From assembly GCA_963711565.1 (NCBI GenBank), contig CAVQEQ010000001.1:1184001-1248000 (forward strand): a DNA stretch of 64,000 nt, given 5' to 3'. Under the pieces are notes generated by a model. The model ran no database searches. It saw only the letters and a program-made list of their open reading frames with translations, and was not told where the DNA came from. The stretch comes from an uncultured delta proteobacterium. Lineage in GTDB: Bacteria; Desulfobacterota; Binatia; Binatales; Binataceae. This document shows, in pieces, positions 12,466-62,772 of the stretch (the stretch's first letter is position 1; the number at the start of each line of letters is the position of its first letter). Both the position numbers and the translations under genes were made by a program.

Positions 12466-12561
12466 GCGAATCATCAAGCGTACACGATCGCGCCGCGCGT
12501 GACGAAATTTTTCGCCCGGCTCGCGCAAAGGTTGACTACTCGCGGTGCCGCGCGTAACTTC

Positions 12562-12705
12562 GGCGTCGCACCCGGTGCACGGGAAGCCGGTTCAAATCCG
12601 GCGCTGCCCCGCAACTGTGTGGGGGGACGACGGCCCATCATGCCACCGCTTCGGCGGGAAGGCGGGCCCGAGGACGAACCCCAAGCCAGGAGACCGGCCG
12701 GGTCA
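12562..12705 (+). ncRNA. Cobalamin riboswitch
   Basis: GGGAAGCCGGTTCAAATCCGG, CTGCCCCGCAACTGT, GGGAAGGC and B12 box AAGCCAGGAGACC upstream of btuB. Confidence 0.93.
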
Positions 12706-12758
12706 CTAACTGTCTGCCTTCCGCGGGGAGGGTGGCCTCAGGCACGAATTTCCTGAAG

Positions 12759-48527: not shown

Positions 48528-50111
48528 TTAATGCACCGCTTCGGCCGGCAAGTTGCGCGTGTCGCGCTTGAGGAACAGAAACGTCGGCACGAGGATCAGC
48601 ATCAGCACAGTCAGGTCCCGGTAGATGTCGTTGAACGACAGCATCGCCGCCTGCCGCTGCACCATCCCGTAGAGCATCGCCATGCCGTGCTTGTGGCCCA
48701 TCGCGAATTCGTTGCCCATGTTGACGCCGCCCGGCATCTGCATATGCGGGAGCGTGAAGACCGTGATGTGCTCGACGAGGTAGCTCTGATTGATCTGCTG
48801 GCGATGGATCAGCAGCGTCGTCAGGTACGAGGTGCCGATCGCGGCGCCCAAGTTGCGCGTGACGGAATAGAGGCTCGCGGCGCGACCCATCTTGAACTTC
48901 TCCATCGAGCTGAGCGCGGCCGCCGACAAGCCGGGGAATATCAACCCGGTTCCCACTCCCTGGATCACGGTCGGCCACACGATTCGCTTCACATCCGAAT
49001 CGAGATTCAGCCCCGCCATCCGCCACATCGCGATCGCGACGAGGAGAAAGCCGATTCCGACCAGCGGCCGGATGTCACCGCCGCGCCGCGCGATAGCGCC
49101 AAGTATGATCATCGAAAACATCGTGCCGAAGCCGCGCGGGGCCATCACCAGTCCGGCCTTCGACGCCGTGTAACCGAGCGTCTCCTGCAGAAACACGGGA
49201 TTCAGGATCGCCGTGCCGTAGAGCGTGAAGGTCAGAAAAATTATCAGCACCACCGGCAGGGTGAAGTTCATGTTCTCGAGGATCGAGAGATCGACGACCG
49301 GGTCCTCGGTGTGCAGTTCGTGGTAGATGAGAATCCCGAGCGAGATGAGCGCGGCGGCCGTGCAATAAACCACCCACGGGCTGGTGAACCAGTCGGCGCG
49401 CTCGCCGCGATCGAGCACGATTTCGCCAAGGCCGAGCGTGACGAACAGGCACGCGATACCGATCAGGTTGACGCGCCCGCGGCGCAGGTTGCGCATGTAC
49501 GACGGGTCGTCGACGAAGCGATAGACCATGAACGCCGCCAGCGTCCCGATCGGCACGTTGATATAGAAATTCCAGCGCCAGCTCCACGCGTCGGTGATAT
49601 AGCCGCCGATCGTCGGGCCCATGATCGGCGCGACCATCATCCCGATTCCCCACACCGCCATCGCCATCGCCTGCTCGCGCGGCGGAAACGTCTCCATCAG
49701 GATCGCCTGCGACAGCGGCATCATTGCCGCGCCCGCCGCCCCCTGCATCAGGCGGAAAAACACGATCTGGTTGAGGGATTGCGCCACACCGCACAGCGCC
49801 GACGACACGATAAACATCGTGATCGACGCGACGAAGTAGCGCTTGCGGCCGAAGCGCTCGGCTATCCACCCGGTCATCGGGATCATGATTCCCGCCGCGA
49901 CCAGGTACGACGTAACGACCCACGCGATTTCGTCGACGCTCGCGGAGAAACTGCCCTGCATATGCGGCAGAGAGACGTTGACGATCGAGGAGTCGAGGAC
50001 CTCGAGCACGGTACCAAGCATCACGGAGAACGCGATCACCCACTTACGCGTCGAGGAGAACTCATGCACCTCGTGCGTAGTCTGGGTGATCGTTTTAGGC
50101 GCAACAGCCAT
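48528..50111 (-). CDS. DHA2 (EmrB/QacA) MFS efflux permease
   Basis: LDSSIVNVSLP, WVVTSY, RFGRKR, GPTIGG, WRWNFYINVP. Confidence 0.93.
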   Translation of the reverse strand: MAVAPKTITQTTHEVHEFSSTRKWVIAFSVMLGTVLEVLDSSIVNVSLPHMQGSFSASVDEIAWVVTSYLVAAGIMIPMTGWIAERFGRKRYFVASITMFIVSSALCGVAQSLNQIVFFRLMQGAAGAAMMPLSQAILMETFPPREQAMAMAVWGIGMMVAPIMGPTIGGYITDAWSWRWNFYINVPIGTLAAFMVYRFVDDPSYMRNLRRGRVNLIGIACLFVTLGLGEIVLDRGERADWFTSPWVVYCTAAALISLGILIYHELHTEDPVVDLSILENMNFTLPVVLIIFLTFTLYGTAILNPVFLQETLGYTASKAGLVMAPRGFGTMFSMIILGAIARRGGDIRPLVGIGFLLVAIAMWRMAGLNLDSDVKRIVWPTVIQGVGTGLIFPGLSAAALSSMEKFKMGRAASLYSVTRNLGAAIGTSYLTTLLIHRQQINQSYLVEHITVFTLPHMQMPGGVNMGNEFAMGHKHGMAMLYGMVQRQAAMLSFNDIYRDLTVLMLILVPTFLFLKRDTRNLPAEAVH

Positions 50112-50189
50112 GGAGGAAATCCTCGTTCAAGGTACAAAGGCGTCGTCGCCGATGCAAAAGACTTGAACCGTCGATGCAGTCATATCCCC

Positions 50190-50432
50190 TTCGCCTCCCC
50201 CTCAATGGGGGAGGCCGACGCTCGTCGTCGAGCGTCGGGTGGAGGACCAAAATTTTCCGGATTCCGGATCTTCGGCACATCAGACAATCGCGCCTCACGA
50301 ATGTCCTCCACCCTCGCCCTCCTCCAGCGAAGGAGGAGGGTATTCAAGACACTGGGTGCAGGGGTCACCCCCCCGCGACGGTGTCGATGCCGAAGGAGGT
50401 GTGGAACCCACCGCGGGTTCCACTACAATCAA
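50190..50432 (+). repeat. Composite repeat, copy 1 (cruciform element + GGGTGCAGGGG unit + TACAAT)
   Basis: Direct repeat of 51796-52006; cruciform part also present inverted at 56438-56593. Confidence 0.9.
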
Positions 50433-50439
50433 GTTCCTC

Positions 50440-51783
50440 ATGCCTCCCTCCGCCACGCTCCCTCCCGGGCCGAACCTCTTCGCGACTTTCGATTTCGTGC
50501 GCAATCCGTTCCGCTTCCTCGACGAATGCGCGCGCCGCTACGGCGATTGGTTCACCGTGCGCGTGCCGGGAGTCTCTCCGTTCGTCTTCACCAGCGACCC
50601 GGCCGCCGTCCGCGAGGTTTTCCTCGGCGACCCCGACACTCTTCATGCCGGCGACGCCAACCGTCCCCTCGGCGCGTTCATGGGCGAGAAGTCGTCGCTG
50701 TTCCTCGACGGTGCGGAGCATCTGAGCCAGCGCCGTTTGCTGCTGCCGGCATTTCATGGCGAGCGGATGAGTTCGTATGCCGATACGATGCGCACGGCGG
50801 CCGCCAATGCGATCGCGTCTTGGCCTCTTGGGCAGCGCTTCCCGATTCATCCGCAAATGCGCGCGATCACGTTCGAAACGATCATCCGCGCCGTATTCGG
50901 ATTCCAGAACGATGCGGCAGGCGCGGAGCTGCGCGCCCTGATGAAGCAATTGTTCGATCTGTATTCGAGCCGCCTCGGCACGCTGTTCTCTCTGCCCGCG
51001 ATGCAAATCGACGCCGGCCGATGGAGTCCGTGGGGGCGCGCCGTCAGGCTGACGCGTCAGATCGATTCGATCCTCTACGCGGAGTTCGCGCGGCGGCGAA
51101 AAGAAGGCGTCGAGGGACGCGCGGACATCCTCTCGATGCTGCTGGCGGCACGCTACGAAGACGGACAGCCGCTCCCCGACGCGGTCATTCGCGACGAGAT
51201 GTACACTCTCATGCTAGCGGGCCACGAAACTACGGCAGCCACGATGGCGTGGGTCATCAACCGCATGCTCACCAACCCCAACGTGATGGAACGCGCGCGC
51301 GCCGAAGTTCTTTCAGTATTGGGAGACCAACAGCTCGATTCGTCGCACGTCGGCAAACTGAAATTTGTCGAGGCGGTAATCAACGAGACGATGCGCCTGG
51401 ACCCGGTCGTGCCGAACATCGGCCGCGGCTTGACGAAGCCGATGACCATCGCTGGCCGCCAACTCCCGGCAGGCGTAACAATCGCCCCATGCATCTACCT
51501 GATACATCGCCGCCGCGAACTATGGCCAAACCCCGACCAATTCAGCCCCGACAGATTCCTCGAGACCCGCCCGAGCCCGTACACATTCCTCCCCTTCGGC
51601 GGCGGCCCAAGAAGATGCCTCGGCGCAGCGTTCGCAAGCTACCAGATGAAGATCGTAATCGTAGAAATCCTGTCGCGCGTAGATCTGAAGCCCGCGGAGG
51701 GCTACACCGCGCACGCCACCCGCCGCGGCATAGCATTCGCTCCGAGCGAGGGGATGCCGGTAATCGCTTCAAATCGTTCCTGA
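50440..51783 (+). CDS. Cytochrome P450
   Basis: LAGHETT, ETMR (ExxR), PDRF, PFGGGPRRCLG. Confidence 0.95.
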   Translation: MPPSATLPPGPNLFATFDFVRNPFRFLDECARRYGDWFTVRVPGVSPFVFTSDPAAVREVFLGDPDTLHAGDANRPLGAFMGEKSSLFLDGAEHLSQRRLLLPAFHGERMSSYADTMRTAAANAIASWPLGQRFPIHPQMRAITFETIIRAVFGFQNDAAGAELRALMKQLFDLYSSRLGTLFSLPAMQIDAGRWSPWGRAVRLTRQIDSILYAEFARRRKEGVEGRADILSMLLAARYEDGQPLPDAVIRDEMYTLMLAGHETTAATMAWVINRMLTNPNVMERARAEVLSVLGDQQLDSSHVGKLKFVEAVINETMRLDPVVPNIGRGLTKPMTIAGRQLPAGVTIAPCIYLIHRRRELWPNPDQFSPDRFLETRPSPYTFLPFGGGPRRCLGAAFASYQMKIVIVEILSRVDLKPAEGYTAHATRRGIAFAPSEGMPVIASNRS

Positions 51784-51795
51784 CAATGAGTTGTA

Positions 51796-52006
51796 GCCTC
51801 CTCCTACGTTGGAGGAGGCCGACGCTCGTCGTCGAGCGTCGGGTGGAGGACCAAATTTTCCGAATTCTGGGTCTTCGGCGCATACAAACAATCGCGCCGA
51901 AAATGGTCCTCCACCCTCGCCCTCCTCCGACGAAGGAGGAGGGTATTCAAGACACTGGGTGCAGGGGTCACCCCTGCAAACCCACCGCGGATTTCACTAC
52001 AATCAA
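51796..52006 (+). repeat. Composite repeat, copy 2
   Basis: Shares GGAGGCCGACGCTCGTCGTCGAGCGTCGGGTGGAGGACCAAA and GGAGGAGGGTATTCAAGACACTGGGTGCAGGGGTCACCCC with copy 1. Confidence 0.9.
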
Positions 52007-52011
52007 TCGCG

Positions 52012-52362
52012 ATGACCCCCGAAGACAAAAAGTTGATCACGATGATGACGCGGCTCTACGCCAAGACCAAAGCCGATCTCGTGGAATGGGAGCCGAGCGA
52101 GGACGCCAGTCTCTTCGCGGTGAAATTCTCGGATTACACGATCTCGATCCAGCACATGCTGGCGACCGGGAACAATCCGGAATGGTTCAATCTCGCCATC
52201 GCGAACAGCGACGGCGTGCCGATCCAGGAGATGGACAGCAAAACAGCCAGGGACAACGGCTTCGCCGACATGCCCGACCTCTTCTATCGCGCCCGCCGCC
52301 ACGCCGTGGACCTGAATGCCGCGCTGGACGACATACTCAAGGAACTTGATGAGTTGTCCTAG
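52012..52362 (+). CDS. Hypothetical protein
   Basis: 116-aa ORF with GC3-rich codon usage; ATG 8 nt after TACAAT. Confidence 0.7.
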   Translation: MTPEDKKLITMMTRLYAKTKADLVEWEPSEDASLFAVKFSDYTISIQHMLATGNNPEWFNLAIANSDGVPIQEMDSKTARDNGFADMPDLFYRARRHAVDLNAALDDILKELDELS

Positions 52363-52477
52363 CACAAATCGTTAGGCGCGAGCGGTCTCTCAATCCGGTC
52401 ATCGGCGGGCGCGCGGAACTTCTTAAGAGTCGCCACGCGTCCACGCGACAACCGCAGCGTGAGACTCAGCGCGCGGC

Positions 52478-53266
52478 TCAAAGATGCCATCGCGCCGTAT
52501 ACGCCTTGCAAATTTGCGCAATCATCGCGCGGTAGTCGGCGTCGATATCAATTCCTAAGCCGTTCACTCGCGCCAAGTACGGAGGATTTACGTTGTCGAT
52601 GAAGGCCGGCACTAGAAGCACAAAATCATAGCCGAGCACGTGCGTATGACCCGGCTTTCGTGTCGGAAGACCTCGAAACTTCTTCGCCGTAGTTTTTGGA
52701 TCATTTGGCCGATTGTCACTCACGGCTTCTGAAAATTCTTTCCAAAGCCGAGTATCTCCCGAGGATAACCGTGGAACGATTTTTCTTAGGAACCTTTTGG
52801 GATTTTTCTTGAACTTTGGTTTTATTCGATCCGGGACGTTCAGCACTTTTTGTGCGACACCGATCAGTACTGTAGCGACCAATACCGCCTCTTCTCTGGC
52901 GGAATGAACCGCCTTCATTACCTCGTTCAGGTCTGTATATCGGGTGGTACGATTGCGATGAGCGGTGACCACTGATTTGTTCTCGATGCAGACCCTGACC
53001 TGCTCGAGGTCAGGCGGCGAGTCCTTATCGTTTCCTCGCGCTCCGCCTATGAGAAGGTCCAATGCCCTCTCGTCCTTTCCGGGAATCGGTATGTTCAGCC
53101 AGTATCTTATAGCGCCACTTTCGAGGTCAGCGCGGAGAGGCTCGCAGGTGCCGAGGAGGTCCTTCAGAATGCCAAGACTAACCGTGTCCGAATGGTCCTC
53201 CTTACGGTGGTTATGAAATCCCCGTGTCTTTATGTCTTCAATGACTTGATCGAAAGGCGTCGTCAT
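52478..53266 (-). CDS. Putative PD-(D/E)xK type II restriction endonuclease
   Basis: LDLLIG...CIENKS; ATGA-coupled to a DNA methyltransferase; lower GC. Confidence 0.7.
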   Translation of the reverse strand: MTTPFDQVIEDIKTRGFHNHRKEDHSDTVSLGILKDLLGTCEPLRADLESGAIRYWLNIPIPGKDERALDLLIGGARGNDKDSPPDLEQVRVCIENKSVVTAHRNRTTRYTDLNEVMKAVHSAREEAVLVATVLIGVAQKVLNVPDRIKPKFKKNPKRFLRKIVPRLSSGDTRLWKEFSEAVSDNRPNDPKTTAKKFRGLPTRKPGHTHVLGYDFVLLVPAFIDNVNPPYLARVNGLGIDIDADYRAMIAQICKAYTARWHL

Positions 53267-54660
53267 CGTCCGAATTCGAGTTCCCTCGTTCGTGTATCCT
53301 CGTTTCGAGCCGCTCTCCGCTGAGTAGCGAATTTGGGAGGTACAGGAAGCTTCTTGAGAGTATGACTCTGCAACCTAAGAAACCCGTTGGCGACTCGTTG
53401 GCAGTGGGATGGTAGCCATTCCGCGACGAATCTGGAATTCAGATAGTCACACAGGTCTTCAATGACCGCCGAGTCTCTCGGCACGATGTAATAGACGGAA
53501 TGTCGGGGGACGAGCTTGCCTTTCTGATCGATCCAAAACTTGGGCCGTTCGGTGATGTCCTTGCAAAGGATCTTAGGGCGCAGTATATCGTTGAGCGGCG
53601 GAGTCTCATGGAACGCGTACCAAGGTTTTCGTCGAACGCACGTTCGTTGGATCAGCTGGGAACGGATAGCGGGTTGCGAAAGATAATCTTTGAGTTTTCC
53701 AAGCCTATCTTCAGAAATCAGAGTTCCATCGAGATCGTATGGAACCAGGATTAGCTTGCGCGAGTCCAGGTCATCGTTGAAATCCCCCATTTCGCGCCCC
53801 GCGATGGTCGGATAAGCAAATCGTCGTAGGTTCGCGGGAAGAGCATCTGCAACTCTGACGAAAACGTCATCTGCTCCGGTGGCAACGCCGCAGCTGATGC
53901 GCAGACAGACCTCTTCCAACGTGAGACCGGAGGAAATGCCGTTGTGGCCCATTATGAGGGGCAGCCACGAGGAACCGTCCACCGGCGGAACTATTTCGAC
54001 TTCAGAGCCGTCGCGCAAGATCGCTAGCGTGGAACTTGGCCGGCTCACTTCGTTCGAGATCGTCGTGATTGTTGGATAGGTGACCAGTTCCGCGAAAGTC
54101 GCTTCGTTTATCAACCGGATTTCTTCAACATTCTTGCGCGCGAGAATCCTTCTAAGGGCCTGCGCAGTCTCAACGTAAAGAAATTTCTCGGGAGTTATGA
54201 ACACCAAGCGACCGGCAGGATTCAAAAGCTTCAACGCTTGCTCGAAGAACAACAGATAGAGATCGAATCTTCCGGTCGCCGTTTCGAACCGTTCCCGGTA
54301 GCGCTGCTTTTCGCGCTCGGACAGCTCCGTAATCGGAACATACGGCGGATTCCCTACAATGAAATCGTATGTTCCCCGCTGGTCGTCCGTCAGGAAGTCC
54401 GAGCCCCTGATTTCAACCGATGCGCACTTCCCGAATCGCGCCCGTGCGATCTCTGCATGCTTTGGATTTGACTCTATTCCGACAATTCGAGGAACACTCG
54501 CCCGGTGTTTTGCGCACCAACGAACGATCCCATCGATAAACTCGCCGCGGCCGCAACCGGGATCCAGAACCAGCGCGTTCGATGTGGGGCGGTGGTTCAA
54601 AAAGAGACGGTCAACCATCAGGTCTACCGTCTCGCTTGGCGTTGGAACGAAACCCTTCAC
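53263..54660 (-). CDS. N6-adenine DNA methyltransferase (gamma class, TaqI/PaeR7I-like)
   Basis: VLDPGCGRGEF, VGNPPY, DLYLLFFE, GVATGAD, GFLRLQ. Confidence 0.9.
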   Translation of the reverse strand: MKGFVPTPSETVDLMVDRLFLNHRPTSNALVLDPGCGRGEFIDGIVRWCAKHRASVPRIVGIESNPKHAEIARARFGKCASVEIRGSDFLTDDQRGTYDFIVGNPPYVPITELSEREKQRYRERFETATGRFDLYLLFFEQALKLLNPAGRLVFITPEKFLYVETAQALRRILARKNVEEIRLINEATFAELVTYPTITTISNEVSRPSSTLAILRDGSEVEIVPPVDGSSWLPLIMGHNGISSGLTLEEVCLRISCGVATGADDVFVRVADALPANLRRFAYPTIAGREMGDFNDDLDSRKLILVPYDLDGTLISEDRLGKLKDYLSQPAIRSQLIQRTCVRRKPWYAFHETPPLNDILRPKILCKDITERPKFWIDQKGKLVPRHSVYYIVPRDSAVIEDLCDYLNSRFVAEWLPSHCQRVANGFLRLQSHTLKKLPVPPKFATQRRAARNEDTRTRELEFGR

Positions 54661-54804
54661 CCACCCTCCCGGCTAGCACCGCCTAGGCCAACTTCATTTA
54701 TGCTCGCTGCGAAGGCAGGGTGCAAATGTTCACGGTCTCGAGAGATTGACCTCAAGCGGTTATCATGTGCGCGGAACCCTTCTATCCTGTCGGGAGAGAA
54801 AACA

Positions 54805-55050
54805 TTGAACGAATTTATTTGCCCGTATTGCGGAGAGCCCGAGATCGCCGAATTGTTATGGTGCGTTGTACTCCTTCCGGTTGCGCGCTGGTCGGATGAG
54901 GGCAGAGCGGTAGACTACCGGGAACCTGAGGTCGATTTGGAGTCCGAATTGCCTTACGAATCAATCGATGAATCAGTGTCCGGGGACAGGCCGGTCTACG
55001 AATGCCGCAATTGCGCAAAGCAATTCCGTAAACCGAGCCGCGCAGACTAG
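54805..55050 (+). CDS. Small acidic zinc-ribbon protein
   Basis: GGGAG RBS, TTG start; CPYC...CRNC. Confidence 0.6.
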   Translation: MNEFICPYCGEPEIAELLWCVVLLPVARWSDEGRAVDYREPEVDLESELPYESIDESVSGDRPVYECRNCAKQFRKPSRAD

Positions 55051-55106
55051 CTCGGTTCGATCTTCAGACGAGCAATCGTATGTTATGCAGAATCCAAAGC
55101 GGAACC

Positions 55107-55257
55107 GGGATTCTTCACTACACCAACTTTCGCTCTGAATGACACAGGAAAAAGAACCTGAGAGCAAAAGGGCGTCCTCGCCATTTTGCGATTAGTACTG
55201 GGTGCAGGGGTCACCCCTGCCGAAGGAAGTGTGAAACCCACCGCGGGGTTTCACATT
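55107..55257. repeat. Degenerate GATTCTTC...CGCTCTGAATGACA REP half plus GGGTGCAGGGG-family copy
   Basis: 55197-55257 matches 43115-43172; related REP fragments at about 14970 and 40965. Confidence 0.75.
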
Positions 55258-55297
55258 CAATAAAGTGACTTACGTCTCCCCCAAGGCTCATCGCTCG

Positions 55298-55330
55298 TTG
55301 ACTCGTTTCTCGAACCTAACGTATGTTAGG
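55298..55330 (+). promoter_or_regulatory. Leaderless promoter with operator palindrome
   Basis: TTGACT-N18-TATGTT, 6 nt before ATG 55334; CCTAAC-GTAT-GTTAGG palindrome at 55315-55330. Confidence 0.6.
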
Positions 55331-55333
55331 CGC

Positions 55334-56413
55334 ATGCCTCATGAATCTCGACTCAACTTCTCCACCGACGAAATTCTCGCCAATGTTGATACTCGCGAGC
55401 CGCTTATCGTTAAGGGCGTCAAGTGTCATGGCGGGTTTGATGCGGACGGGCATTACCGGTCGCCGCGGACTGCGTTTCGCGTGCCCGCGATCAAGGCATG
55501 GCAGGAGCAGCATGTTGCTACTTCGGGCACTGCGCTGTTCGAGATTCCCGCCGATACCGTCTCGCCGCAGATGCCCAACGTCGCGCAGGTGAAATTTCTG
55601 CTCAAGTCGGGTGTGCGCGAGCCGTTCGTGCGATGGCTGTCCGAGATCGCGATCGTCGAGGGCTTCGGCGCGATGATTCGTGAGCTGCCGGTGCCTCCAC
55701 TCAACACATTCATCCGCGAGGACACTGCCGGCACCGCGCTGGCTCATCTCACGAGCGGGCTGTTCGAGGCGCATGCGCGCGACGAGGCGGGATGGAGCGA
55801 AGAGGGCGGGCATCGCCAGATGTGGGACGCGGCGCGCGACGCGGCGCTGTCCAATCCCGCAATCTCGCCGGAGATTTACGCCAACATCATGGCGCGGCGC
55901 GGCGGCCAGCCGGCCGCGATGTTCCCCGAGCTTGGCGAGCCGGTCGAGCGCTTGATTCGCTTCATGGCCAACGTGCTCGCGATCGAGGTCTTTGCCGCAT
56001 CGACGTTCGCGTGGGCCGAAGAGATTCTGTCAGACCCCGAAGTGTCCGACGCGCCCGACGACGCCGCCAACCTCGTGCGCTTCATCCGTTCCGACGAGGC
56101 GCCGCACGTCCAGTACCTGCGCACGGCGCTCTCCGAAATCCAGGCGCGCACGCTGCTCACGCTCGACGGCAAGCCCATCTCGGGCCGCAAGGTGGTGAAC
56201 GATCTGGCGGATCGCGGGGTTCGCGCGATGGTTCGTCAGCGGTTGAACGAGCGCCCGGGCATGGTGCGCGATCTGATCCGCAGAACGGCCAACGTCAAGG
56301 ACATCGACGCTTTGATGATGGAGTTTGACGCGCTCGGGACGCCGTGGACGCCGCCCGCGCGCTACGCGGACCTGGCGCCGGCGCCGAGCGCCGCCGCGCC
56401 CGTCGGCTACTGA
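55334..56413 (+). CDS. Ferritin-like (di-iron) four-helix protein
   Basis: IVEGFG, AHARDEAG...H, IEVFA, IRSDEAPH (DExxH). Confidence 0.7.
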   Translation: MPHESRLNFSTDEILANVDTREPLIVKGVKCHGGFDADGHYRSPRTAFRVPAIKAWQEQHVATSGTALFEIPADTVSPQMPNVAQVKFLLKSGVREPFVRWLSEIAIVEGFGAMIRELPVPPLNTFIREDTAGTALAHLTSGLFEAHARDEAGWSEEGGHRQMWDAARDAALSNPAISPEIYANIMARRGGQPAAMFPELGEPVERLIRFMANVLAIEVFAASTFAWAEEILSDPEVSDAPDDAANLVRFIRSDEAPHVQYLRTALSEIQARTLLTLDGKPISGRKVVNDLADRGVRAMVRQRLNERPGMVRDLIRRTANVKDIDALMMEFDALGTPWTPPARYADLAPAPSAAAPVGY

Positions 56414-56437
56414 GTCCAAGTTCTCTCTCTCCTTCCT

Positions 56438-56593
56438 ATTCCCTCCCCCGCTCGTTGGGGGAGGGTTAGGGTGGAGGACAACTGTGGGGCGCGATTGTCT
56501 CTTGCGCCGCACATTCTGAATCCGGAAAATTCGGTCCCTCACCCGCCGCTCTAAGACGAGCGGCGGCCTCCCCCCACGAATGGGGGAGGCGAA
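56438..56593 (-). repeat. Cruciform element, inverted third copy
   Basis: Reverse complement aligns to 50190-50342 with compensatory stem changes. Confidence 0.85.
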
Positions 56594-56671
56594 GAAGTAG
56601 GACAATCGAACTATCGTGGGGCCGATGGTAAGGTTTTTCTTTGGCTCGCGTGCCGGAGCCGGACCTATCGC

Positions 56672-58809
56672 GATGCATTCCCACCGCAAAACCCTGATTC
56701 CATCGGGCATCATGCGCCTCTGCGTCGCAGGCGCGTTTGCGATTGCGATAGCAATCGCGATTGCGCCCGCGTTTGCGCAGGATACATCGGTGGCGCCGTC
56801 CGCGCCGCAGCCGGCGGCTGAGGCGAGGCCTGTGGCTGCGGCGAGTCCCGCGGCTGCGAACGCGGCGGCGTCGCCGACGCCGCCTGATGCGCACATGGTC
56901 ACGTCGTACCTGAGCGACGTTATCAACTGGTACGGGCATCTCGGTGTCGAAGCGCAGCTCGTGAGCGATCCCGACGAAACCCTTTTTTTTGCCGATGACC
57001 GCCAGACGGCGGGCGAGGTTCTGAAGTTGGCTTTCGAGTATGCGCGCGCGCAGGCGGCGTACCTCGCCAAGGCCAATCCGAGCCTTGGCGCCGCGACTCC
57101 GACTGTATCCGCTGCGGCATCCAATGCCGCCGGTTTGGGCAATGTGACCCACTCCCTGCAGACGCTCGACGCCGCGGCGAACAAGCTCCGCGCTCGCATC
57201 AGCGCGTTGCAGGCGCAGCTCGCCAAAGCGCCGGCGGCCAGGCGGACTGCGCTCGCGTCTGAAATTCAGGACGCGCAAAGTGAACTCGACCTCAACCAGG
57301 CGCGCGTCGATGCGCTCAATGCGCTCGCGCAATACGAAAGCGGCAATGCGGCGCCGGATCAGAACGGCGGACTGATTGGCCAGATAGACGAGCTCGAGCA
57401 TTCGACCTCCAATAGCAGCAAAAAAACGCAAGCGCCTGGCCGAGACCGTCCTGGGGGCGAGCGCCGAGCCGACCGGGATTTTAGGTCTCGTCACCGATCT
57501 GTTCGCGCTCAGCAACAAGCTTGACTCGCTGGAGCAGAACCGCGCGCTCGCGCAGGCGTTATCCGTGCGCGCATCGGACGTGCGCAAATCGGTCCTTGCG
57601 GTGATCACCGATCTCAACGCGCGCGGCGACGCGCTGGCAGCGGGGGCCGACGCCACCGATATCGCCGCACTCAAAGACCGCAAGCACGCGTTCGAGAACC
57701 TGCTTGACGAGCACAAGCTGTTGAGCGCCGCTGCGCTGCCGCTCAGCAAGCAGATCGTGCTGCTGCGGATTTACACCAACAACGTCGGCCGCTGGCGCGA
57801 CGCGATCGTGCAGCGCCGGAACAAGGAATTCCGCAGACTCCTGATCCGCCTGATCGTGCTCGCCGCCTCATTGCTGCTCATCTTCGCCGGTTCGCTGGTG
57901 TGGCGATGGCTGACCAATCGCTACGTCAAGGACATCCGCCGCCGCGGGCAGGCGATGGCGGCGCGGCGTCTGGTGCTCGGACTTCTCGTCGTGATCGTTG
58001 TATTGCTGAATTTCTCCGACGAGCTGGGGTCCGCCGCCACCATCGTGGGATTCGCGGCCGCCGGTATTGCAGTCGCGCTGCAAAATGTGATCCTGTCGAT
58101 CGCCGGCTACTTCTTTTTGATCGGGCGCTTCGGGATCAAGGCCGGCGACCGCGTGCAAATCGGCGGCGTGACCGGCGACGTTATCGATATCGGGCTGGTG
58201 AAACTCTCGCTGATGGAACTGGGCGGGACAGGGACGCATCGCGAGCCCACCGGGCGCGTCGCGGTGTTCTCCAACGCGATCGTGTTTCAGCCGTCGGGCA
58301 ACTTCTTCAAGCAGGCGCCCGGCACCAGCTTCGTGTGGAACGAAGTGCGGCTGACGCTCGCGCCCGATGTTGACTATCGGCTGGCGGAGAAGCGGTTGAT
58401 CGACGCCGTTGACGAAGTATTCGCGCGCTATCGCGACCGCGTGATGCGCGACTACCGGCATCTCGAGCGCGACCTCAACGTCATGCTCGAAACGCCGAAG
58501 CCGCAAAGCCGGCTGCATCTCAGCCAGTCGGGGCTGGAAATAGTCATTCGGTACCCGGCTGAGACTTACAGTGCGCCGCAAATCACCGACGAAATTTCGC
58601 GCCGCGTGCTGGACGCGATCAACCGCGAGCCGAGCCTGCGCATGGCGCCGCAGGCCACCGCCAACATCCAGGCGCAAGTACCGCCGCCGGCAGGCGCCGA
58701 AGATGGCGCCGAGCAGCCCGCCGACACCAATGGGCAAGCGGCGGACGACAAGCAGGTCGCCAGCGAGGGAGCGGAACAGTCCGTCGGCACCGCGCGAGCG
58801 AATAAATAG
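56672..58809 (+). CDS. mscS: Large MscS-family mechanosensitive channel, frameshifted near the A7 run at 57420
   Basis: Signal peptide and coiled-coil N-terminus; GFAAAGIAVALQN, IKAGDRVQIGGVTGDVIDIG; one extra base separates the frames. Confidence 0.8.
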
Positions 58810-59925: not shown

Positions 59926-60945
<1,020 letters not shown>

Positions 60946-62680: not shown

Positions 62681-62772
62681 GGAGAGGTGGCCGAGCCCGG
62701 TTTAAGGCGCACGCCTGGAACGCGTGTAGACTCGAAAGGGTCTCGGGGGTTCGAATCCCCCCCTCTCCGCCA
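62681..62772 (+). tRNA. tRNA-Ser (GGA)
   Basis: CACGC-CTGGAAC-GCGTG anticodon arm, long variable arm, GGTTCGAATCC, GCCA end. Confidence 0.96.

Follow-up and report, generated by a model that had tools for sequence, protein, structure and literature searches.

Do short palindromic repeats write strand-asymmetric mutations into the genes beside them and, if so, on which strand? The question is raised by a 64,000-nt stretch from an uncultured soil-dwelling delta proteobacterium of the Binataceae (the window; G000:C1:1184001-1248000, on contig C1 of a 4.84 Mb genome in four contigs, 94.9% complete), in which a cytochrome P450 gene, a gene initially labelled ferritin-like and an mscS-family gene have G/T- or C/A-rich third codon positions near hairpin repeats. 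The initial annotation read these patches as mirror-image halos, in which the strand whose 5′ end points at a repeat accumulates C>T and A>G changes after nicking in trans, and proposed a system of local hypermutation and gene capture. Our analysis shows a halo that is real but modest, polar with respect to repeat orientation and superposed on a scrambled replichore skew, with no general mirror and no hypermutation system. The repeats are mostly oriented with the local skew, carry a short halo of the same sign on both sides with a lineage-specific substitution spectrum, and are sites of rearrangement, and old skew persists in the blocks that have moved.

The gene set comprised 4,520 genes called with a purpose-built hexamer model, and skew was scored at every synonymous third position as the G/T observed less that expected for the codon box, with ± values giving bootstrap errors across loci or gene ends. 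Relatives were sampled in part and with a bias towards the origin (1.6 Mb of G007, 0.68 Mb of G017, 0.44 Mb of G009 and 40 kb each of G003 and G013), with a sequence identity of ~86% in the synteny comparison.

Repeat orientation and the short halo

The signal is carried by two high-copy families of intergenic hairpins, A and H, which occur as singlets and as inverted doublets. Repeat A consists of two hairpins and has ~141 copies in the genome, all intergenic (141 matches, 0 within genes), and among the best 80 of at least 130 loci its matches are almost confined to records of Candidatus Binatus, Binataceae and uncultured deltaproteobacteria. The H-type hairpin ends number 262, with 22 pure H+H- doublets, and two further families, D and E, have about 48 and 46 copies. 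None of the repeats is matched by an Rfam family. Most copies are lineage-specific, as G007 has no repeat at 111 of the 138 gene ends that adjoin one here.

When repeats were oriented, the flanks of A (140) and H (218) showed the same skew sign on both sides and on both gene strands (z of 4-8 after joint regression), peaking at about -0.05 to -0.06 within 300 bp and then declining over 5-10 kb, with the G-rich strand of the repeat being the C/A-rich strand of its flanks. The RAYT-linked family D had no oriented skew in the joint regression, and no clear oriented effect was seen for either D or E (13/20 and 13/26). Within genes, the skew of the 300 bp nearest the repeat differed from that of the more distant part by -0.029±0.006 (200 ends beside repeats), against -0.003±0.004 (313) and +0.004±0.003 (455) at control ends; this within-gene halo was negative at 132/220 loci, and 0 of 20,000 orientation shuffles reached the observed value. 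Relative to orthologs without the repeat, the last 50 codons differed by -0.048±0.009 (147 ends); under stricter filtering, the difference amounted to 0.032±0.018 in the first 150-bp zone and 0.028±0.009 in the second. This difference follows the lineage that carries the repeat, and the halo is lineage-specific.

A mirror at every repeat, as would result from nicking of both strands with outward displacement, is highly improbable. The right-minus-left skew within 300 bp was +0.012±0.008 over 215 repeat loci, slightly different from the -0.010±0.004 of 515 control gaps, as the two-strand model would have it, but it was positive at 109/215 loci only, and a pooled mirror test of 5′ and 3′ gene ends over the whole genome gave no sign change, so that for repeats in general the observation named in the initial annotation as refuting its model has been made. 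Singlets scored +0.013±0.009 with 74/150 positive and were hit on the same strand on both sides, contrary to the rule that the strand with its 5′ end towards the site is hit. The sign does hold for three patches of the window and for H+/H- doublets, the sole class with a mirror contrast and the one to which the window repeats belong (+0.083±0.024 within 300 bp, 19/24 across genomes with this locus excluded; +0.049±0.018, 14/19, in G000 alone), and this contrast fades past 300 bp. The lineage-specific mirror at doublets was +0.006±0.018, at only 7 loci and with low power. Polarity follows the orientation of the repeats and the local replication history, and it is not a mirror except at H+/H- doublets.

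The substitutions themselves are directional. Own-branch changes within 200 bp of repeats numbered 128 toward G/T and 71 toward A/C (23 vs 10 of 36 loci), with ratios of 1.60 for C>T/G>A, 2.20 for A>G/T>C and 2.88 for C>G/G>C, where the leading-type strand near the origin has 1.2, 1.2 and 1.7-1.9 in a similar sequence context. On the lagging-template strand, C>T and A>G changes were in excess (85/949 vs 66/1181 and 45/177 vs 21/182). The strand-asymmetric C>T and A>G changes anticipated by the initial annotation therefore exist, are centred on repeats and lineage-specific, and are accompanied by C>G, but they hit one strand on both sides. They do not amount to hypermutation, as the total rate rises only ~1.15-fold (synonymous difference of 0.299-0.316 within 150 bp vs 0.257; branch rate 0.170 vs 0.148). 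There was no sign of clusters made by an APOBEC-like deaminase, with no distinct motif, a context like the replichore background and P450 derived alleles on both sides (14 vs 12), nor of a diversity-generating retroelement, as changes were not adenine-specific, C being enriched as much as A (reverse transcriptase was not searched for).

Skew patches of the window

The window holds three gene-less H+/H- doublets, three copies of A and one of E, arranged as follows:

48528..50111, minus strand: EmrB-like MFS transporter (Pfam MFS_1), the left neighbour, 5′ end without halo
50188..50345, no strand: gene-less inverted doublet of DUF559-type hairpin ends, H+ then H-, both strands folded
50349..50423, plus strand: repeat A, G-rich strand on plus, with a second hairpin F, degenerate copy
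50440..51783, plus strand: cytochrome P450 (Pfam p450)
50701..50880, plus strand: G/T-rich P450 patch, nearest repeat 280-460 bp away, overlapping a strain-variable tract
51481..51660, plus strand: C/A-rich P450 patch adjoining an H+ end, sign as in the orientation rule, common to four relatives
51796..51945, no strand: second H+/H- inverted doublet, a synteny breakpoint against G007
51953..52000, plus strand: repeat A copy with truncated F hairpin
52012..52362, plus strand: 116-aa open reading frame (orf116) of no known family, without G/T halo
52478..54660, minus strand: restriction-modification cargo, an Eco57I/TaqI-like methyltransferase (53263-54660) and a 262-aa partner without family match (52478-53266)
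55100..55146, plus strand: repeat E
55196..55262, plus strand: intact repeat A plus F
55334..56413, plus strand: 359-aa gene, "ferritin-like" in the initial annotation, without Pfam or NCBIfam match, with a T-rich 5′ patch
56436..56595, no strand: third H+/H- inverted doublet
56616..58809, plus strand: mscS-family gene, G/T-rich 5′ patch adjoining an H- end

The hand counts behind the first description were exact (G27 T14 C16 A3 at 50701-50880, C36 A14 G9 T1 at 51481-51660 and G23 T20 C16 A1 at 55382-55561). Against an amino-acid-matched expectation, the plus-strand z values of the two P450 patches were +2.90 and -4.94, that of the ferritin-like gene +3.86 and that of the mscS 5′ end, judged G/T-rich by eye, +3.08; windows equally extreme make up 2.6%, 0.05%, 0.39% and 1.9%, respectively, of 19,099 in the genome. 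The skew swing within the P450 gene ranks first of 589 genes of similar length and, with the z values, places the patches beyond chance. They do not form a mirror at every repeat, as four flanks are silent or wrong-signed: the 5′ end of emrB (z -0.52), the ferritin-like 3′ end (+0.66) and orf116 (-0.45), the latter two with the wrong sign, and the P450 gene over its initial 84 synonymous sites (-1.75), also of the wrong sign for a mirror halo.

The 3′ patch of the P450 gene and the bulk of the 5′ patch of the ferritin-like gene are common to 4-5 related species, and own-branch changes there are non-directional (2 toward G/T and 4 toward A/C at the ferritin-like 5′ end); being shared and without directional recent change, both patches are old. 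In G003 a single doublet joins the P450 gene directly to the ferritin-like gene, and the ferritin-like 5′ patch fits the doublet still present at that site in G003. The two strongest patches may thus be the flanks of one ancestral doublet that was later split by cargo, to judge from this arrangement. The restriction-modification pair is absent in five relatives, and one strain (run X5) skips the cassette with a joint from 52346 to 55100, the right bound being repeat E.

Effects other than strand-specific mutation might produce such patches, namely codon or RNA-structure selection at the ends of genes, recombination over short tracts, or artefacts of gene calling and parsimony. The P450 gene is indeed a mosaic, in which strain differences, spread over 50524-51594, cluster in dense tracts of 50-150 bp (50622-50773, 51123-51168 and 51545-51594) with many amino-acid changes, while the ferritin-like gene is almost invariant among strains (0-1 differences over ~1.1 kb in two runs). 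Among 40 of 108 differences in the P450 tracts, the derived allele was that of the window in 14, that of the strain in 12 and unclear in 14, which rules out one-sided mutation clusters and points to recombination with diverged donors; the recombinant tracts may add to the skew swing of the gene. Furthermore, the gene calls come from our own model, parsimony is noisy on a near-star tree, and site-level tests are non-independent. Selection or artefact is nevertheless very improbable as the source of the halo, as the same genomic strand is affected whichever strand codes, at 5′ and 3′ ends alike, generic end effects were subtracted, and aligned synonymous sites also show the signal.

The mscS gene seems split by one extra base near 57437, but 4/4 sequencing runs have one base fewer there; the apparent frameshift is an assembly error, and the gene is likely intact. 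Elsewhere in the window, many contig joints and loose ends of runs fall inside one gene at 60267-60835, which suggests another dispersed or variable segment, and Rfam matched a tRNA-Sec (871-962), a cobalamin riboswitch (12556-12716) and a tRNA (62681-62769).

Local skew, fork direction and rearrangement

At the 50-kb scale, replichore-wide skew is absent except near the origin. A sharp skew switch lies near C1:1,110,000, at a cluster of motifs that we take to be parS, and is mirrored in G007 and G017; the orientation of A flips beside it in all three genomes. Copies of A lie between parB, parA, rsmG-like and mnmG-like genes at C1:1106591-1111938, and dnaA is 35 kb from this parS-side cluster (C1:1075122-1076501). 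In the genomes of G000, G007 and G017, palindromes resembling parS also occur at a distance from the origin cluster (with 14-18 exact copies each in G003, G007 and G017), consistent with heavy shuffling.

Synteny with relatives fragments into blocks of 1-75 kb, and breakpoints are enriched about four times at repeats (17/107 repeat-bearing gaps vs 10/262 other gaps of at least 150 bp). The idea that repeats act as sites of gene capture stands to the extent that they are hotspots of rearrangement and cargo, and fails as regards a targeted diversification system. The skew of orthologs correlates (rho 0.54 in 367 genes) and still does so (0.46) in the 113 whose fork strand is now the opposite one, so the kilobase patches are mostly inherited and represent mainly old replichore skew in shuffled blocks. 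Replichore skew, dismissed in the initial annotation, is instead the main component at the kilobase scale. The skew difference at breakpoints is larger on average (0.047 vs 0.032, p 0.004), with an equal rate of sign changes.

Repeat orientation is coupled to this skew. Among singlets, 257/343 are oriented with the local skew, rising to 162/189 where the skew is strong, and the coupling was replicated in G007 (68 loci) and, in other genomes, at 43 of 59 singlet loci of A (80 loci, less 1 duplicate and 20 of mixed orientation or otherwise unusable). The halo depends on the same relation: its excess over background is ~+0.045 where orientation agrees with local skew, +0.013 to +0.025 where skew is neutral, and -0.009±0.017 where it strongly disagrees. 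On contig C1, 31 fork-concordant loci gave +0.069±0.015 and 16 discordant loci -0.027±0.028. A product of orientation and fork direction accounts for these values better than either factor alone.

A halo might also appear if the repeats merely marked places where the lagging-strand template is already long exposed, through fork pauses or transcription conflicts at gene ends, and which draw skewed changes and single-strand insertions alike. The intergenic gaps of the window carry repeats of varying type in most relatives, so that the same gaps hold different repeats in different species, and the window patches predate speciation; D and E loci too amplify the background (slope 1.6±0.2 vs 0.87±0.05), and 94/128 H singlets come after a co-oriented gene end. 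Control gaps, however, have no gradient whether sorted by background or by the sign of the fork, the ortholog difference follows the repeat-bearing lineage, and doublet flanks differ by the orientation of their ends. A common cause of this kind is therefore improbable.

Candidate mechanisms

We consider it somewhat more probable than otherwise that oriented hairpins keep the lagging-strand template single-stranded for longer within ~300 bp, and so amplify the ordinary mutation bias of replication on both sides. With respect to the local skew of replication type, most copies of A and of the DUF559-type ends point the same way, as would be expected if insertion into the lagging-strand template always took place in one orientation, which is the behaviour of IS200/IS605 elements. 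The halo would build up only as long as the lagging template is the C-rich strand of the repeat, owing to pausing of the polymerase or a gap where the hairpin is folded or bound by protein, and the amplified bias would comprise C>T, A>G and C>G on the lagging-template strand on both sides. An inverted doublet would always hold one end in the active orientation, and hence one amplified flank; averaging over such doublets would give a mirror contrast, which would explain why the window looks mirror-like.

Several results weigh against lagging-strand amplification, or against its simplest form. Both hairpin strands fold about equally well (the intact A plus F at 55196..55262 forms two hairpins of -18.3 kcal/mol as DNA, with the opposite strand equally stable), so a bare hairpin cannot account for a single active orientation. 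When background is regressed out, an orientation term is left (+0.022±0.007, and +0.041±0.012 at inverted loci), which would also fit nicking, and A-/A+ pairs run opposite to prediction (0/5). The short core is clear in this genome and weak in relatives: composition at 0-300 minus 600-1500 bp was -0.001±0.013 at concordant loci of G007, no core was seen in G017, the 59 A loci of other genomes gave -0.011±0.012, and the relatives' own repeats (52 loci) gave +0.042±0.015 in the first 150 bp only, with +0.005±0.013 in the next. In the window, the sign of the ferritin-like 5′ patch contradicts the orientation of the adjacent A copy. Agreement with the present fork direction is lower than that with local skew (43/63 on C1, 39/68 in G007), as expected if orientation is fixed at insertion. 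As to the larger scale, unsigned skew is raised for several kb around repeats, being 0.063 beside them and 0.033 at a distance of 10-20 kb, the skew correlation across breakpoints (0.50) is near that of syntenic joints (0.55), and breakpoints have no excess of sign changes, which speaks against a pure legacy of old skew; repeats may also contribute at the kilobase scale.

The obvious candidate for activity in one orientation is a protein bound at the hairpin, for which DUF559 may serve. H-type ends, of four sub-types, face inward around 8/8 full DUF559 genes, seven apparently intact and one with an in-frame TAG, and the gene-less H+/H- doublets look like miniatures of these elements. One DUF559 gene is frameshifted at its 3′ end. 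The sole structural relative of DUF559 was the endonuclease-like protein 3HRL, and we take its fold to be Vsr-like. Family D, a GTAG-type REP family, flanks one of two RAYT-like genes, the other (G000:C3:1344719) being flanked by a different, rare palindrome, and a GIY-YIG gene outside the window is flanked by E; A and H flank neither Y1 gene. Candidates for the nuclease acting in trans that the initial annotation had postulated are thus present (8 DUF559 genes between H ends, 2 RAYT-like genes and GIY-YIG), and the search it proposed for such genes flanked by the same repeats was answered for H, D and E but not for A, while the RAYT-associated REP family is without oriented effect. For A, no candidate enzyme was found among open reading frames between A pairs, TnpB, HNH flanks or the short open reading frames of 80 further loci (the latter judged by eye), no HUH transposase was seen between or beside its copies, and TnpB was absent from the search of the 94.9% complete genome.

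A DUF559 nuclease for H, and another enzyme for A, could nick the G-rich strand and open two-sided gaps that expose the C-rich strand regardless of the fork. The eight DUF559 genes between inward H ends, the persistence of the orientation term, the H+/H- mirror contrast within 300 bp and the breakpoints at repeats argue for this. However, no halo is seen where orientation strongly opposes the background, nor at fork-discordant loci of C1, the spectrum matches that of the replichores, no enzyme was found for A and nicking by DUF559 is only putative, so we regard the nuclease model as doubtful, though kept in play by the candidacy of DUF559 as the bound protein. About as doubtful is the bolder proposal that DUF559 and a partner of A are domesticated strand-specific nickases, with hundreds of oriented hairpins serving as local mutators and fork-restart points that would write the 300-bp halos and much of the kilobase skew, and would cause rearrangement and cargo exchange.

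Lagging-strand amplification places the halo close to known replication-strand bias (GC or keto skew), which has the same substitution classes and the same strand relation near the origin; here it is instead scrambled into patches of 5-50 kb and amplified within ~300 bp of oriented repeats. IS200/IS605 elements (IS608, ISDra2) have a replication-linked orientation bias (PMC3971601, PMC6006769), and the fork orientation of the hairpin-ended elements described here is consistent with a similar insertion into the lagging template. As far as these accounts go, they give the orientation bias and not a flanking mutation bias (PMC3971601, PMC6006769). Unlike IS200/IS605, A and H have no adjacent TnpA in a genome without TnpB, and H ends flank DUF559 and not an HUH enzyme. 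A and H likewise resemble REP/REPIN-RAYT systems in being short intergenic hairpins, found as singlets and inverted doublets, with fast gain and loss (compare PMC6006769), but the RAYT-linked D is unskewed and the skewed A and H do not flank RAYT genes.

Secondary structures on the lagging template have been proposed to leave single-strand gaps (PMC12708500), and it is by analogy with that proposal that we suggest longer exposure here. Substitution rates are also reported to change in the flanks of non-B DNA, in accounts that are mainly eukaryotic (PMC12708500, PMC7897504). Origins and human CpG islands have bidirectional strand asymmetry, and thus mirror polarity (PMC2817419), whereas singlet repeats here have no sign change. 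Neither a strand-polar halo at dispersed bacterial repeats nor repeats flanking DUF559 turned up in a literature search of mostly open-access text.

The effect is small and falls short of a targeted diversification system. It is nevertheless a trace of strand-specific mutation that can be measured at defined repeats of a bacterium, which makes the effects of hairpins on lagging-strand synthesis testable from genomes alone, and it suggests that DUF559 ends form a REP-like class with fork-linked orientation. In a heavily shuffled genome such as this one, local skew and repeat orientation together constitute a record of past replication direction.

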